Positions 19,750 through 23,674 of a DNA stretch of 64,000 bases are shown piece by piece (the stretch's first letter is position 1; each line of letters starts with the position of its first letter). The stretch lies in assembly GCA_023205875.1 (NCBI GenBank), contig CP060756.1, positions 868,001-932,000 on the forward strand, read 5' to 3'. Source of the stretch: Chloropicon primus (taxonomy: Eukaryota). The notes beneath the pieces were generated by a model. That model saw nothing but the letters and a program-made list of their open reading frames with translations. It had not been told where the DNA came from and ran no database searches. The translations under genes were made by a program, and so were the position numbers.

Positions 19750-19962
19750 CGTGAAACTAGTTTCGTTCGAGAGGCACTCTCGTGTGAGTTTTCGTGTTTC
19801 ATTTTTTTCTGAAAATAATCACATCGGCTCTTTCTCGTGAGCCTCTTATCCAGGGGGTATATAAGGCGAAGTCGACCAACAGAGGGCCTCACTTTTACGA
19901 ACACGAGCTCGTACAAACACGCACACAAAAACAACAAACTCAAACACCAAATCATCATCATA
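19750..19962 (+). promoter_or_regulatory. Promoter type A + 5'UTR variant X of cluster gene 1 (palindrome GAAACTAGTTTC, TATA box GTATATAAG)
   Basis: Near-identical copies at 21604-21400 (-) and 23543-23674 (+). Confidence 0.7.
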
Positions 19963-20565
19963 ATGGAGTCCGAGAGAAGATCCACCATGTCCAGCCTCAA
20001 GGGACAGTTGTCCAACGTCGAGGGCTCTGTCAAGAGCATGAAGGCCGCCGTCGTTGTCGGTTCCGTCTTGACCGTTGCCTGCTTGGCCGCCGTCTTCGGA
20101 GTCACCATCCTCGCCAACGAGGTCTCCAAGGAGGTTAAGGTTTCCAACGGAACCCTCACCGCCAAGAACGGACAGGCTGTCTTGACCACCAACTTGATCG
20201 CCACCACGAACATCAACAGCGTCCTCCCAAAGGCCATTGAGTTGACCCACAACAACGTCGATATTGTTGCCAAGGTCAACGCCGTCGTTTCCGAGGGTGC
20301 CAAGACTACCTTGATCTGCGACGACCTCGTCTACACCAGCGAGAACGGACAGGGCTCCACCCAGGTCACCTCTGGCTCCGTCTTGGAGTCCGTTTTGGAC
20401 AACACCGTTGAGAAGAGAAACACCCAGATTCCAGCATGGGTCGTTGTTGTGCTGATGAAGATGATCATTGGCGCTGGCTGTGACGGAATCGCCGCAAGCG
20501 AGGCTTTCCCTGATTACAGCAAGACCATCCAGACAATCATTCAGGCGTGCAGCGACCATATCTAA
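19963..20565 (+). CDS. Prepropeptide-like paralog 1 (200 aa): constant N-terminus, variable C-terminal peptide after VEKR
   Basis: MESERRST...single hydrophobic segment...; one of four paralogs. Confidence 0.85.
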   Translation: MESERRSTMSSLKGQLSNVEGSVKSMKAAVVVGSVLTVACLAAVFGVTILANEVSKEVKVSNGTLTAKNGQAVLTTNLIATTNINSVLPKAIELTHNNVDIVAKVNAVVSEGAKTTLICDDLVYTSENGQGSTQVTSGSVLESVLDNTVEKRNTQIPAWVVVVLMKMIIGAGCDGIAASEAFPDYSKTIQTIIQACSDHI

Positions 20566-20835
20566 AGGACCTGAATGAGAAACCCATATAATATACAGTT
20601 TTTTTCGATATACAATTTAGTTCTGTTGGTGACCATCTTAGCCCGCGATCAGTAAAACATATTAGTTATGTACTTTGGAAGCCTTCTTTAAAGGCGATGC
20701 ACTTGCACACATACTTCTCTTCTCATGACTGGAGATGCAATAATTGATTTGGATACTTTTGTTAAGAAATTTCTTTTGACTGTATATTATATATTTCTTC
20801 CGAGTAAAACCTTAAGGATTAGGAAAGGAAGTAAT

Positions 20836-21399
20836 TTACTGGTCCGCCAACCACTCTCTGGCCTTACCGGCAAGCCACTCGACACCCCACTGAACGACGG
20901 CCATGACGCACTTTCTCAAGCTAGGCCTCTTCCTGCACTTCTTCTTGTAGTCCTGGTTAAGGCTTCTGAGCTCCAAGCTGTCCTCAGAGTCAAGGAAAGA
21001 TCCCTCACGGACGTGGACCTCCTCACCGATGACAACGATGTCGTCGCAGATGGTGGTGACGGTGGCTCCCTGGGCGACAACAGCGTTGACGGCGAAGACT
21101 CCGTTGAAGGAGCCGAAGTCAGCGATCACGCTCTGGGCAAGACCAGAAGCCTTGTTGGAGGTGTAGGTGGTGGTGGTCAAGACAGCCTGTCCGTTCTTGG
21201 CGGTGAGGGTTCCGTTGGAAACCTTAACCTCCTTGGAGACCTCGTTGGCGAGGATGGTGACTCCGAAGACGGCGGCCAAGCAGGCAACGGTCAAGACGGA
21301 ACCGACAACGACGGCGGCCTTCATGCTCTTGACAGAGCCCTCGACGTTGGACAACTGTCCCTTGAGGCTGGACATGGTGGATCTTCTCTCGGACTCCAT
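20836..21399 (-). CDS. Prepropeptide-like paralog 2 (187 aa): cationic Trp-rich C-terminal peptide after LELR
   Basis: First 76 codons identical to paralog 1. Confidence 0.85.
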   Translation of the reverse strand: MESERRSTMSSLKGQLSNVEGSVKSMKAAVVVGSVLTVACLAAVFGVTILANEVSKEVKVSNGTLTAKNGQAVLTTTTYTSNKASGLAQSVIADFGSFNGVFAVNAVVAQGATVTTICDDIVVIGEEVHVREGSFLDSEDSLELRSLNQDYKKKCRKRPSLRKCVMAVVQWGVEWLAGKAREWLADQ

Positions 21400-21811
21400 T
21401 ATGATGATGATTTGGTGTGTGTTTGTTTTGTGTGTGTTTGTACGAGCTCGTGTTCGTAAAAGTGAGGCCCTCTGTTGGTCGACTTCGCCTTATATACCCC
21501 CTGGATAAGAGGCTCACGAGAAAGAGCCGATGTGATTATTTTCAGAAAAAAAAATGAAACACGAAAACTCCCAAGAGAGTGCCTCTCAAACGAAACTAGT
21601 TTCACGGATGATATGATAGGCCTTATCGTGTGAGTTTCATTGTTTTTTCTACTCTTCACAGCTTCCACCGGGCTCTCTCTTGTGATTTTAATTAATCCCA
21701 GTGGGGTATATAAGGCGAAGTCAACACACAGAGCGCCTCACTTTTACGAACACGAGCTCGTACAAACACACACACAAAAACAACAAACTCAAACACCAAA
21801 TCATCATCATA
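21400..21811. promoter_or_regulatory. Bidirectional promoter (A leftwards, B rightwards) between paralogs 2 and 3
   Basis: Two divergent GGGGTATATAAGGCGAAGTC TATA blocks; central palindrome 21592-21603. Confidence 0.75.
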
Positions 21812-22435
21812 ATGGAGTCCGAGAGAAGATCCACCATGTCCAGCCTCAAGGGACAGTTGTCCAACGTCGAGGGCTCTGTCAAGAGCATGAAGGCCGCCGT
21901 CGTTGTCGGTTCCGTCTTGACCGTTGCCTGCTTGGCCGCCGTCTTCGGAGTCACCATCCTCGCCAACGAGGTCTCCAAGGAGGTTAAGGTTTCCAACGGA
22001 ACCCTCACCTCCAAGAACGGACAGGCTGTCTTGACCACCAACATGTCCTACACCGCAAAGTTGTCCAAGTCCACCGCCATTGTCACCCTTGCTGATCAGG
22101 ACATGACCGGTACCTTCGCCGTCAACGCTGTTGTCACCCAGGGAACCAAGCTTACCCTCATCTGTGACGACGTCGTTGTCTCCCAGGAGGGCGGTGAGAC
22201 CGATGTCCAGGTTACTGAGGACTCGATGTTGAACAACCTGAGTGACAGTGTCGAGAAGAGAAGCGTGAACAATATGTGCAACTATTTTGGTGGTTGGAAG
22301 AGGTTTTGCGAGAAGTACACCACGAAGCTTATTCATGGTGCATATGACTACCTCTGGGACAACAGAAAGGAGATCTGGAACTACGGAAAGAGATCTAGTG
22401 CTACCATGGACATGTGCGGTGTCGCTTGCGCCTAA
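21812..22435 (+). CDS. Prepropeptide-like paralog 3 (207 aa): VEKR site and internal Y-GKR site
   Basis: Constant region differs by one codon (TCC vs GCC). Confidence 0.85.
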   Translation: MESERRSTMSSLKGQLSNVEGSVKSMKAAVVVGSVLTVACLAAVFGVTILANEVSKEVKVSNGTLTSKNGQAVLTTNMSYTAKLSKSTAIVTLADQDMTGTFAVNAVVTQGTKLTLICDDVVVSQEGGETDVQVTEDSMLNNLSDSVEKRSVNNMCNYFGGWKRFCEKYTTKLIHGAYDYLWDNRKEIWNYGKRSSATMDMCGVACA

Positions 22436-22736
22436 AGAAGATAAATTGTCTAAAACAAAATTCACCATCTCTGTTATAATATGATATTTATGCAAAAGTT
22501 GATTCTTTCGCAGACAATGTTGAAGTTTGCTTTGGTGGTGTTCAACGTTTTCTCGAGGTCGACTACGGCGCACAAGTAAGTTACTTGTAACCAGAGACTT
22601 GTTCCTGCTGTAGATTCCGTGCTTCCATCACATTGCGTTCAATTCGAAAAAGTAGTTACTTTTTGCATAAATATCATATTATATTTTAGACAATTTATCT
22701 TCTTTAGGGTGATAAATTAAATCAAACTCTGAAAAT

Positions 22737-23345
22737 TCAAGGTCGTACGCAACCGACACCGCACATGTCCATGGTAGAACTAGATCTCTTTCCGTAGTCC
22801 CAGATCTCCTGTCTGTTCTCATAGAGGTAGGCCTTCAACTTTCCAACAGCCCACCAGAATGGATGCCACTTGGGCAACTTGCTCACACTTCTGGTCTCAA
22901 CCTCCTGGATGAGGCTGTTCAAGATGGAGTCCTCAGCGATGGAGATATCGTTGGCACCGTTCTCGCTGACAACAACGAGGTCGTCGCAGATCATGGTGAC
23001 CTTGGTTCCCTCGGTGACAACAGCGTTGACGGCGAAGACTCCGCTGGTAGCACCGTCCTTAGAGTTCAAGACCACGGACTCAGTGTTGCTGTTAGCCTTA
23101 TCGGTGAAGAAGGAGTTGGTGGTCAAGACAGCCTGTCCGTTCTTGGTGGTGAGGGTTCCGTTGGAAACCTTAACCTCCTTGGAGACCTCGTTGGCGAGGA
23201 TGGTGACTCCGAAGACGGCGGCCAAGCAGGCAACGGTCAAGACGGAACCGACAACGACGGCGGCCTTCATGCTCTTGACAGAGCCCTCGACGTTGGACAA
23301 CTGTCCCTTGAGGCTGGACATGGTGGATCTTCTCTCGGACTCCAT
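22737..23345 (-). CDS. Prepropeptide-like paralog 4 (202 aa): VETR site and internal Y-GKR site
   Basis: Constant region differs by one codon (ACC); shares the last ~25 aa with paralog 3. Confidence 0.85.
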   Translation of the reverse strand: MESERRSTMSSLKGQLSNVEGSVKSMKAAVVVGSVLTVACLAAVFGVTILANEVSKEVKVSNGTLTTKNGQAVLTTNSFFTDKANSNTESVVLNSKDGATSGVFAVNAVVTEGTKVTMICDDLVVVSENGANDISIAEDSILNSLIQEVETRSVSKLPKWHPFWWAVGKLKAYLYENRQEIWDYGKRSSSTMDMCGVGCVRP

Positions 23346-23674
23346 TATGATGATGATTTGGTGTGTGTTTGTTTTGTGTGTGTTTGTACGAGCTCGTGTT
23401 CGTAAAAGTGAGGCGCTCTGTGTGTTGACTTCGCCTTATATACCCCACTGGGATTAATTAAAATCACAAGAGAGAGCCCGGTGGAAGCTGTGAAGAGTAG
23501 AAAAAACAATGAAACTCACACGATAAGGCCTATCATATCATCCGTGAAACTAGTTTCGTTTGAGAGGCACTCTCGTGTGAGTTTTCGTGTTTCATTTTTT
23601 TTTCTGAAAATAATCACATCGGCTCTTTCTCGTGAGCCTCTTATCCAGGGGGTATATAAGGCGAAGTCGACCAA
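23346..23674. promoter_or_regulatory. Inverted second copy of the bidirectional promoter (B leftwards to paralog 4; A rightwards, orphan)
   Basis: Reverse complement of ~21477-21770; homology stops abruptly after gtcgaccaa at 23674. Confidence 0.75.

Follow-up and report, generated by a model that had tools for sequence, protein, structure and literature searches.

The window, that is, the whole 64,000-nucleotide stretch of DNA that was analysed, lies on chromosome 3 of Chloropicon primus, and four of its genes were matched to annotated C. primus proteins as A3770_03p24360-24390. The genes are intronless, follow the orientation +,-,+,- and have open reading frames of 200, 187, 207 and 202 aa, as a first-pass annotation of this DNA had described, and the four-gene pattern is real and confirmed. 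The features are as follows (positions within the window).

18439..19539, - strand: A3770_03p24350, a PRMT-like methyltransferase gene that faces away from gene 1
19853..20190, + strand: 5' module of gene 1, homogenised; it holds the TATA box (19858-19864), a CA-rich leader and codons 1-76, which encode a predicted cytosolic RRST segment, a 24-residue hydrophobic anchor and ANEVSKE
19963..20565, + strand: gene 1 (A3770_03p24360), 200 aa; tail class 3, hydrophobic, IPAWVVVV.., 2 Cys
20410..20418, + strand: gene 1 junction codons E-K-R, predicted processing site; tail coding 20419-20562
20836..21399, - strand: gene 2 (A3770_03p24370), 187 aa; tail class 9, cationic, KKKCRKRPSLRKC.., 2 Cys
20965..20973, - strand: gene 2 junction codons E-L-R; tail coding 20839-20964
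21172..21509, - strand: 5' module of gene 2, homogenised, with the TATA box at 21490-21496
21702..22039, + strand: 5' module of gene 3, homogenised, with the TATA box at 21707-21713
21812..22435, + strand: gene 3 (A3770_03p24380), 207 aa; tail class 2, 4 Cys, C-terminus MDMCGVACA
22253..22261, + strand: gene 3 junction codons E-K-R; tail coding 22262-22432
22737..23345, - strand: gene 4 (A3770_03p24390), 202 aa; tail class 2, 2 Cys, C-terminus MDMCGVGCVRP
22890..22898, - strand: gene 4 junction codons E-T-R; tail coding 22740-22889
23118..23455, - strand: 5' module of gene 4, homogenised, with the TATA box at 23436-23442

Chromosomes 1, 3 and 13 each bear a copy of the entire four-gene unit, and the PRMT-like gene belongs to the segment present on these chromosomes, so its adjacency in C. 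primus is attributed to segmental duplication. PRMT-like sequence was absent from the 14 metagenome loci, and a functional tie to this neighbour was rejected on both grounds. A tblastn search of the window with 116 family tails, made for silent tail cassettes, gave no match better than E = 0.007 apart from the four genes themselves.

In the first 228 nt (76 codons) the four genes differ at a single nucleotide, which lies in codon 67 (GCC/GCC/TCC/ACC), and near-identity reaches approximately 110 nt upstream of the start, with TATATAA at -105/-97/-105/-97; the earlier description of 76 codons identical at the DNA level save one, preceded by TATA boxes in all four genes, was therefore accurate. 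Past codon 76, some 40 nt suffice for DNA identity to drop from 100 % to about 35 %, and a second conserved island at +306..+366 encodes the AVNAVV..ICDD block that had been recognised in the pro-region. There are 0 nucleotide differences among the four genes in codons 1-62 (head dS = 0), whereas body dS is 0.33-0.69, which indicates gene conversion of the 5' module, by which the promoter and first 76 codons are kept identical among paralogues of one genome. The family is also a clear instance of gene conversion that is partial and stops abruptly within the coding region. Metagenome relatives differ from the window genes in codons 1-62 by 8-24 synonymous codon changes and by only 1-11 amino-acid changes, which points to purifying selection on the protein.

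The family head consists of about 27 conserved residues with the RRST motif, the 24-residue hydrophobic segment (maximal 19-residue hydrophobicity 0.76) and ANEVSKE, and nearly all of the 47 invariant columns found in 50 sequences lie within residues 1-62. The anchor has a heptad-like pattern and small-residue motifs, and even the most distant relatives retain RRST, on the putatively cytosolic side, and ANE.SK, which follows the anchor. A small residue at -1 (..TILA before NE) is compatible with signal cleavage, although the length of the segment fits a signal anchor better. With 27 conserved residues ahead of the hydrophobic segment, the head appears more like a type II signal anchor than a classical, cleavable signal peptide. 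Its extreme conservation, which extends to RRST in distant relatives, suggests a role besides export, since export alone sets lower demands and a simple prepro leader needs no such conservation.

Codon usage in the four genes is strongly biased, as noted before, with an Nc of 29-33 and a C/T-ending codon set. Compared with 18 other long ORFs in the window, the four genes make little use of four-fold codons that end in G (GCG 3 % vs 37 %, GGG 0 vs 41 %, ACG 3 vs 42 %) and prefer AGA (78 % vs 14 %). This bias suggests that the genes are highly expressed, and their TATA boxes point the same way.

The family comprises at least 260 proteins (matches at E<=1e-3) and its range is C. primus, C. roscoffensis and marine sequences only; the 17 named proteins among the 120 matches listed are all from these two species. 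A profile search of 1.84 billion proteins yielded only 69 clusters. Many marine assemblies contain the family, in clusters that reach 55 member sequences. The four genes have no match in 13 other green algae (Suppl. Data 2, PMC6731263), and both genome papers label family members solely "hypothetical protein". By these searches the gene family is large, undescribed and restricted to the Chloropicon lineage, in agreement with its first description as undescribed and algal. No relatives were found among viral contigs, and a viral origin was rejected. The family has no Pfam match, a PDB sequence profile search gave 0 matches at E<=1, and the ESM Atlas gave no usable match. Among the green picophytoplankton of oligotrophic oceans, Chloropicon species are a major group (PMC12301720).

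The three-tier pattern of head, body and tail recurs in 124 aligned family members and is therefore not due to chance; counts over these 124 members and their 116 tails are not independent, because the sequences share kinship. The body is moderately conserved and beta-rich. In both AlphaFold models it forms a confident beta domain (pLDDT 86-93), followed by a low-confidence linker (pLDDT<50) that contains the junction and then by a helical hairpin. A two-copy complex prediction scored 0.02, which, being made without controls, counts neither for nor against self-association.

The junctions VEKR, LELR, VEKR and VETR, followed by tails of 48, 42, 57 and 50 aa, are present as annotated, and the junction proved to be a conserved basic site throughout the family. 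Its consensus in the 124 aligned members is E-x-R, then N/S, L/M/V and N/S, with Arg in 118 (the remainder being 2 Lys and 4 gaps) and Glu two residues N-terminal of it in 98. The Arg is also present in 13/13 rows of an alignment that includes 11 distant relatives, where it is one of 7 invariant columns and the sole one outside the head; the junctions of distant relatives read RSLL, RKLL, RSLQ and RKLN. Position P2 is Lys in just 66/120 junctions (Ser 24, Ala 15, Thr 9, other 6), so that the junctions do not consistently fit the canonical dibasic Kex2 site. Two residues after the Arg, Leu (68), Met (21) or Val (10) occurs in 99/124 members, and with an aliphatic residue at this position in a predicted secretory protein the junction resembles an R-x-L type processing consensus.

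Family tails are 45-70 aa long, Trp-rich and amphipathic, with 5.1 % Trp (0.0 % in bodies) and 4.0 % Cys, usually 2 each (1.3 % in bodies). The Cys number is even in 115/116 tails (0:10, 2:82, 4:23, 5:1) and in 10/11 distant relatives, which speaks for an oxidising, extracytoplasmic location of the tail. Helical amphipathicity exceeds that of each tail's own shuffles (mean z 1.11, 81 % of tails above 0, Wilcoxon p 1.6e-15), and net charge spans -8 to +8, so that the tails are not uniformly cationic. A 19-residue stretch of mean Eisenberg hydrophobicity >= 0.6, enough to span a membrane, is present in 27/116 tails, and together with the charge range this makes many tails unlike classical cationic antimicrobial peptides. 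The 116 tails fall into 32 classes. The tails of the four genes, earlier described as largely unrelated, are not all so: genes 1 and 2 have classes 3 and 9, but genes 3 and 4 share one class (..W(D/N)YGKRSS.TMDMCGV.C), with an 83-nt arm that is 92 % identical.

The C-terminal part is indeed the most variable: the excess of tail over body differences was significant in 5 of 6 close pairs, one near-identical pair having 0/152 differences in the body and 12/48 in the tail, and other close pairs 0/90 vs 12/48 and 9/91 vs 26/52. This faster divergence could in part be the result of gene conversion upstream. Region-wise dN/dS, computed for 8 pairs, gave a divided answer, with a tail value of 2.95 in pair L003/L004, which has 1 change in 87 body codons, and 0.37 in pair L006/L007; the value above 1 rests on the single pair L003/L004 and on small counts (Sd 3.5, Nd 33.5). 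In P0012/P0019 (support 99) and P0014/P0088 (support 100), bodies that are sisters have tails of unrelated sequence, and a single 21-row clade of near-identical bodies holds 13 tail classes, which supports the exchange of tails as modules between near-identical bodies and, with it, the earlier proposal of diversification by swapping of C-termini. Many tail classes follow body clades and are shared between species, and are therefore old modules, not freely hypervariable ones.

The reading we favour, with slightly less than even confidence, is that the products are membrane-anchored pro-peptides from which the tail is predicted to be cut at the invariant Arg and released outside the cell. The head would insert the protein N-in/C-out in the ER, tail disulfides would form in the lumen, and the body would be a pro-domain with a carrier or masking function. 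The flexible junction would then be cut in the Golgi by a protease of subtilase type (Kex2/furin-like or S1P-like, R-x-L type), and the released peptide may target foreign membranes or act as a recognition signal. Points against this reading are the anchor-like head with its conservation beyond the needs of export, the many junctions that lack Lys at P2, the charge range and hydrophobic stretches of the tails, and the age of many tail classes. The first-pass interpretation as secreted-peptide precursors is partly supported, in its constant head, body, junction and variable tail, with antimicrobial, allelopathic or pheromonal activity as candidate functions.

The main rival is that the products are uncleaved type II variant surface proteins, which we regard as possible though rather unlikely. 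The head would anchor, and perhaps oligomerise or sort, the protein, the body would be a stalk and the junction a hinge, and a variable disulfide tail displayed on the surface would change in response to viruses, grazers or bacteria, or would take part in recognition between cells or gametes. Anchor invariance beyond the needs of export, with its heptad-like pattern and small-residue motifs, and an exposed tail that evolves fast and is swapped as a module would fit such proteins, and an extracellular site accounts for even Cys counts equally well. Surface-antigen families are typically multi-copy clusters homogenised via gene conversion, which the present clusters resemble. A plain hinge, however, needs neither an Arg invariant across the superfamily nor a six-residue motif, the tails are mostly amphipathic or hydrophobic helices and not a hydrophilic epitope surface, and the 1.3 % Cys of the body is unlike the known Cys-rich variant surface proteins of protozoa.

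It is improbable that these are integral proteins of the alga's own membranes, in which the tail re-inserts into or lies on the membrane to give hairpins, pores or membrane-shaping oligomers, for example as a channel-like or vesicle-coat component regulated via the cytosolic RRST, with tail diversity due to relaxed constraint. The membrane-spanning-grade stretches of 27 tails, the retention of RRST and ANE.SK in the most distant relatives and a codon bias resembling that of abundant proteins are in its favour, but 89/116 tails are without such a stretch, and relaxed constraint fails to predict the even Cys counts, the cross-species tail classes or the dN/dS of 2.95. Very recent tandem duplication alone, with a decaying variable part and no special system, would suit the three copies of the unit and was rejected as hardly credible, given the contrast of head and body dS, synonymous changes in the heads of relatives, tail Cys that stay paired, four open frames and an architecture kept in two species and many environmental lineages.

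Taking the tails as released pro-peptides, a wider and more tentative proposal is that the Chloropicophyceae hold a combinatorial arsenal of secreted, disulfide-stabilised, membrane-active peptides, in which the head is homogenised and tail cassettes are swapped and positively selected. The frozen delivery module, conserved junction and modular, fast-evolving, paired-Cys tails are hallmarks of an arms race or of recognition. Such an arsenal would parallel bacteriocins and conotoxins in eukaryotic phytoplankton, and its peptides would shape interactions with bacteria, competitors, grazers or mates. Few green picoalgae of the open ocean are as abundant as Chloropicophyceae and, to our knowledge, almost nothing is known of the interactions of Chloropicon with other organisms. 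If tails are released, about 30 or more natural peptide classes would be available for assay, and, as far as we know and a limited literature search shows, this would be the first polymorphic peptide system of its kind in a green alga.

Among known systems, the Giardia VSPs are protozoan variant surface proteins with an invariant membrane anchor, a Cys-rich CxxC ectodomain and mutually exclusive expression. The Chloropicon family is likewise a multigene family with a near-invariant transmembrane and cytosolic module on a (predicted) variable extracellular part and with homogenised paralogues, but the orientation is mirrored, with the anchor at the N-terminus and, behind a conserved body and junction, a variable part of only some 50 aa, and the protein is not CxxC-rich throughout. 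R-x-L type secretory processing is found in S1P/SBT6.1 substrates (plant RALF23), at the RXL site of diatom silaffins and in apicomplexan PEXEL/TEXEL. The invariant Arg with Leu, Met or Val two residues on, the flexible linker and the predicted secretory nature are shared, whereas the motif of those systems lies near the N-terminus after the signal peptide and that of Chloropicon some 150 residues further into the protein, ahead of a C-terminal peptide where a putative protease would cut.

BRICHOS pro-proteins (ITM2B/Bri2, proSP-C and polychaete arenicin-type antimicrobial peptide precursors) offer a similar layout: the precursor is membrane-anchored or signal-led, a beta-rich carrier domain lies in the lumen, and a basic site precedes a short C-terminal peptide, which in the BRICHOS type is released and is aggregation-prone or membrane-active. 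The Chloropicon tails differ in being mostly helical, and no BRICHOS domain was matched by Pfam in the four window proteins at E<=1. In fold comparison, Foldseek against PDB gave nothing at E<=1e-3 with the full-length or the ectodomain model, and a VIA-wide fold search was filled by long-helix/coiled-coil matches (Z<=5.8), so that the beta domain was barely probed. Conotoxins, cathelicidins and frog-skin peptides combine a conserved prepro region with a hypervariable mature peptide. Sequence relationship to them is lacking (0/50 members match conotoxin-, cathelicidin-, frog-skin-type or BRICHOS families in Pfam at E<=0.01), and the Chloropicon family differs further in its 51-residue signal-anchor-like head with a conserved cytosolic motif in place of a short cleavable signal, an often monobasic junction, no fixed Cys framework, a green algal host and processing that is predicted. 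Both have a conserved N-terminal export and pro part and a basic junction, and the short, paired-Cys C-terminal peptide of the Chloropicon family is likewise the fastest-evolving part and falls into many classes; if it is cut off and released, the family would be an algal counterpart of the animal toxin and defence-peptide gene families.

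Four neighbouring genes of a single family (A3770_03p24360 to 24390, here genes 1 to 4) lie in alternating orientation between a PRMT-like methyltransferase gene and an RWP-RK gene.

Family genes and adjoining genes, with coordinates relative to the window
18439-19539, - strand: A3770_03p24350, PRMT-like methyltransferase gene, divergent from gene 1, 424 bp apart
19963-20565, + strand: gene 1, uninterrupted ORF of 200 aa
20836-21399, - strand: gene 2, uninterrupted ORF of 187 aa
21812-22435, + strand: gene 3, uninterrupted ORF of 207 aa
22737-23345, - strand: gene 4, uninterrupted ORF of 202 aa (A3770_03p24390, C. 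primus chromosome 3, 1.475 Mb)
24923-26974, - strand: RWP-RK domain protein of 683 aa (Pfam E 2.3e-12), adjoining the family cluster

The protein alignment of genes 1 to 4 has 93 invariant columns. Position 67 is the sole difference in residues 1-76 (the head, which includes a hydrophobic anchor), and the first 228 nt of coding DNA hold one variable nucleotide. The beta-rich body that follows has a conserved (F)AVNAVV..G...T.ICDD block and ends at an E-x-R junction (VEKR, LELR, VEKR and VETR in genes 1 to 4), after which come tails of 48, 42, 57 and 50 aa. DNA near-identity begins about 110 nt upstream, includes TATATAA at -105, -97, -105 and -97 in genes 1 to 4, drops to about 35% identity right after codon 76 and rises a second time over +306 to +366; in repeat analysis the shared promoter and 5' modules form arms of 270-324 nt with 93-97% identity. 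All four genes show a strong codon bias (Nc 29-33), with four-fold codons ending in G almost missing and AGA, GGA and TTG favoured relative to 18 long ORFs of the window. The first-pass annotation had described the 76 constant codons, ICDD block, junctions, tail lengths, TATA boxes and codon bias accurately, but its statement that the tails are largely unrelated fails for genes 3 and 4, whose tails are homologous.

Antisense ORFs of 166-258 aa span each family gene on the opposite strands (19737-23457); the simplest account is that the extreme codon bias gives rise to them and that they are not separate genes. A 78-nt copy of the gene 1 promoter segment, 100% identical and including the TATA box, is found at 23597-23674, facing away from gene 4. 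Downstream of it there is no family gene, nor any ORF of at least 50 aa on that strand before 24895; it is one half, lacking its partner, of a divergent promoter arrangement resembling that between genes 2 and 3. In a 1.9-kb tandem array at 16216-18154, an 11-nt unit (AAGATGATACC) is repeated about 170 times, and the array can also be read as a 35-nt period; the 2-kb bin containing it has a GC of 0.40 and an AT skew of 0.49, and a 299-aa ORF at 16212-17111 (- strand) is probably spurious, produced by the repeat. Codon bias in the RWP-RK gene is unusually weak for the window (Nc 57.9, GC3 0.55); passages of the 2019 genome paper count nine RWP-RK genes in C. primus, none of them an obvious orthologue of MID (PMC6731263).

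A word-indexed search returned 260 family proteins at E<=1e-3. Among the 120 matches listed, 17 were named (12 from C. primus, five from C. roscoffensis), all annotated as "hypothetical protein", and the others came from marine assemblies, with some clusters holding up to 55 member sequences. When 1.84 billion cluster representatives were searched exhaustively with a profile, just 69 clusters reached E<=1e-3, and the family is therefore lineage-restricted. Viral contigs yielded no relative, no Pfam match was obtained for the four proteins at E<=1 or for 50 members at E<=0.01, and the PDB contained no sequence relative. The four genes noted in the first pass are confirmed as members of a family that is real, large, lineage-specific and uncharacterised.

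In Supplementary Data 2 of the 2019 paper, A3770_03p24360-24390 are hypothetical proteins with no match in 13 other green algae; the passages searched of that paper, which name PKS, sialyltransferases, guanylyl cyclases and IS605-like transposases as the largest gene families, do not mention the present one (PMC6731263). Nor do the passages searched in the main text of a 2025 comparative paper (PMC12301720), whose Supplementary File S1 assigns genes 1 to 4 to four orthogroups specific to C. primus (OG0000286, 287, 288 and 290), each represented three times in a strain (chromosomes 1, 3 and 13), and adjoined by a PRMT-like orthogroup. According to that supplement, PRMT-like genes lie beside the family clusters on all three chromosomes in both C. 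primus strains, and the four-gene unit plus the PRMT-like gene has therefore been triplicated as a segment; the metagenome loci of relatives showed no PRMT-like gene. Full-text literature searches found nothing on the locus tags of genes 1 to 4 or on high expression of Chloropicon in metatranscriptomes.

The head is the most conserved part of the protein. In a 50-sequence alignment almost all of the 47 invariant columns fall in residues 1-62, and when 11 distant relatives (22-42% identity) were aligned only seven remained, six of them in or beside the hydrophobic anchor; these relatives retain ANE.SK after the anchor and R-(R/A)-S-T-(L/M) in the N-terminal segment, where the RRST motif appears basophilic-kinase-like. 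Codons 1-62 show no differences among genes 1 to 4, while body dS is 0.33-0.69, so head DNA is homogenised within a genome. Metagenome relatives differ from genes 1 to 4 over these codons by 8-24 synonymous codon changes and 1-11 amino-acid changes, and strong purifying selection thus acts on the head protein between lineages. Identical 5' coding DNA with different tails was also found in environmental paralogues (L002, L004, L005).

The tails diverge significantly more than the rest of the protein in five of six close pairs tested (the exception, gene 4 against family protein P0002, was not significant). Gene 1 and P0007 differ at 0/152 positions before the junction and 12/48 in the tail (p 1e-6), and gene 4 and P0003 at 9/91 in the body and 26/52 in the tail (p 2e-7). 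Pairwise body dN/dS among paralogues is about 0.8-2.1. Region-wise dN/dS gave a mixed answer, with a tail value of 2.95 in the close pair L003/L004 (Sd 3.5/41.5, Nd 33.5/150.5; one change in 87 body codons) but 0.37 in L006/L007, and upstream gene conversion may account for part of the tail-versus-body contrast.

Single linkage gave 32 tail classes, which mostly track clades, with exceptions, on a body-domain tree of 94 columns made by a quick method and containing many unresolved forks. Sister bodies carry unrelated tails in P0012/P0019 (support 99) and P0014/P0088 (support 100), 13 classes occur within one clade of 21 near-identical bodies, and the tree requires 23 class changes against a minimum of 17; the tails therefore behave as exchangeable modules, in agreement with the swapping of C-termini first proposed. 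Many classes are old and common to C. primus and C. roscoffensis (e.g. the ..IPDPP class), and no silent tail copies were found elsewhere in the window. Distant environmental relatives (L012:166-1119, P0161, P0163, P0168, P0170, P0171) share the head, body and junction Arg and have much longer or different tails, including a 159-aa Gly-rich tail, one of 196 aa with repeated C..C.N.GR..QC units and others bearing W.P.GCN, so the tail position takes quite different modules.

The junction was scored in 124 aligned sequences (the 120 listed hits and genes 1 to 4, some near-duplicates of one another). Position -2 is E in 98/124, position -1 K in 66, S in 24, A in 15 and T in 9, position 0 R in 118 (K in 2, gap in 4), position +1 N in 56 and S in 47, position +2 L in 68, M in 21 and V in 10, and position +3 N in 71 and S in 24. 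About half of the members are dibasic here. The Arg is the seventh invariant column in the alignment with distant relatives, followed there by SLL, KLL, SLQ or KLN. In AlphaFold models residues 3-57 form one long helix, followed by a beta domain of five strands (about residues 60-150) modelled with confidence (pLDDT 86-93); the linker of low confidence coincides with the junction, the tail is modelled as a helical hairpin (pLDDT reaching 91 when the ectodomain was modelled by itself), and overall pTM is low (0.35-0.43). An invariant Arg within a conserved six-residue motif, in a predicted flexible linker that joins a conserved domain to a hypervariable module, looks like a putative processing site, and its R-x-(L/M) pattern recalls S1P/RXL-type sites.

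Among 116 tails 30 aa or longer, the Cys count is even in all but one (none in 10, two in 82, four in 23, five in one), as it is in 10 of the 11 distant relatives, the eleventh being a Cys-repeat protein of doubtful alignment. Trp makes up 5.1% of tails and 0.0% of bodies, the net charges of tails span -8 to +8 and are complementary, amphipathicity exceeds that of each tail's own shuffles (mean z 1.11, Wilcoxon p 1.6e-15; z>1.64 in 47/116), and 27/116 tails hold a membrane-span-like stretch. The tails of genes 3 and 4 (class 2; 22262-22432 and 22740-22889) contain ..W(N/D)Y-G-K-R-SS.., and many others finish with a short loop bounded by Cys (CGVAC, CKRRSLLMMC). Gly-Lys-Arg in peptide hormone precursors marks dibasic cleavage and C-terminal amidation; a second processing step in the tails is possible.

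Even Cys counts argue for an oxidising compartment as the site of the tail, and so of the whole post-anchor part, which would give an N-in/C-out topology in the secretory pathway. All four proteins have an N-G-T or N-N-T glycosylation sequon at residue 62 (e.g. 20146-20154), about 11 residues past the anchor; most family members retain it, though some do not, and it is weakly consistent with luminal orientation. The best single mechanism, preferred tentatively and at somewhat less than an even chance, is a putative membrane-anchored pro-peptide that would be cut at the junction to release the variable peptide, because the junction resembles a processing site and the tails are faster-evolving, amphipathic and of paired Cys content. 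The head is conserved far beyond the needs of a leader, RRST motif included, and the tails are not uniformly cationic; both weaken the pro-peptide reading, as does the possible share of upstream gene conversion in the tail-versus-body contrast. The first-pass interpretation is partly supported. The main rival, an uncleaved variant surface protein, is rather unlikely but a serious contender, and a protein working in the alga's own membranes is improbable. The dS values exclude recent duplication as the sole explanation.

Judging from literature searches and the searched parts of the two genome papers, the combination seen here in a green alga (N-terminal invariant anchor, sharp intra-CDS gene-conversion boundary, invariant Arg junction and cassette-like tails) appears undescribed. 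In its predicted working the family resembles conotoxin, cathelicidin and frog-peptide precursors as well as BRICHOS-type pro-proteins, with a carrier domain, a basic site and then a C-terminal peptide. Comparison of folds with known structures was uninformative, and the family appears to belong to none of these groups, having no sequence homology with them; it also mirrors protozoan variant surface families with an invariant anchor.
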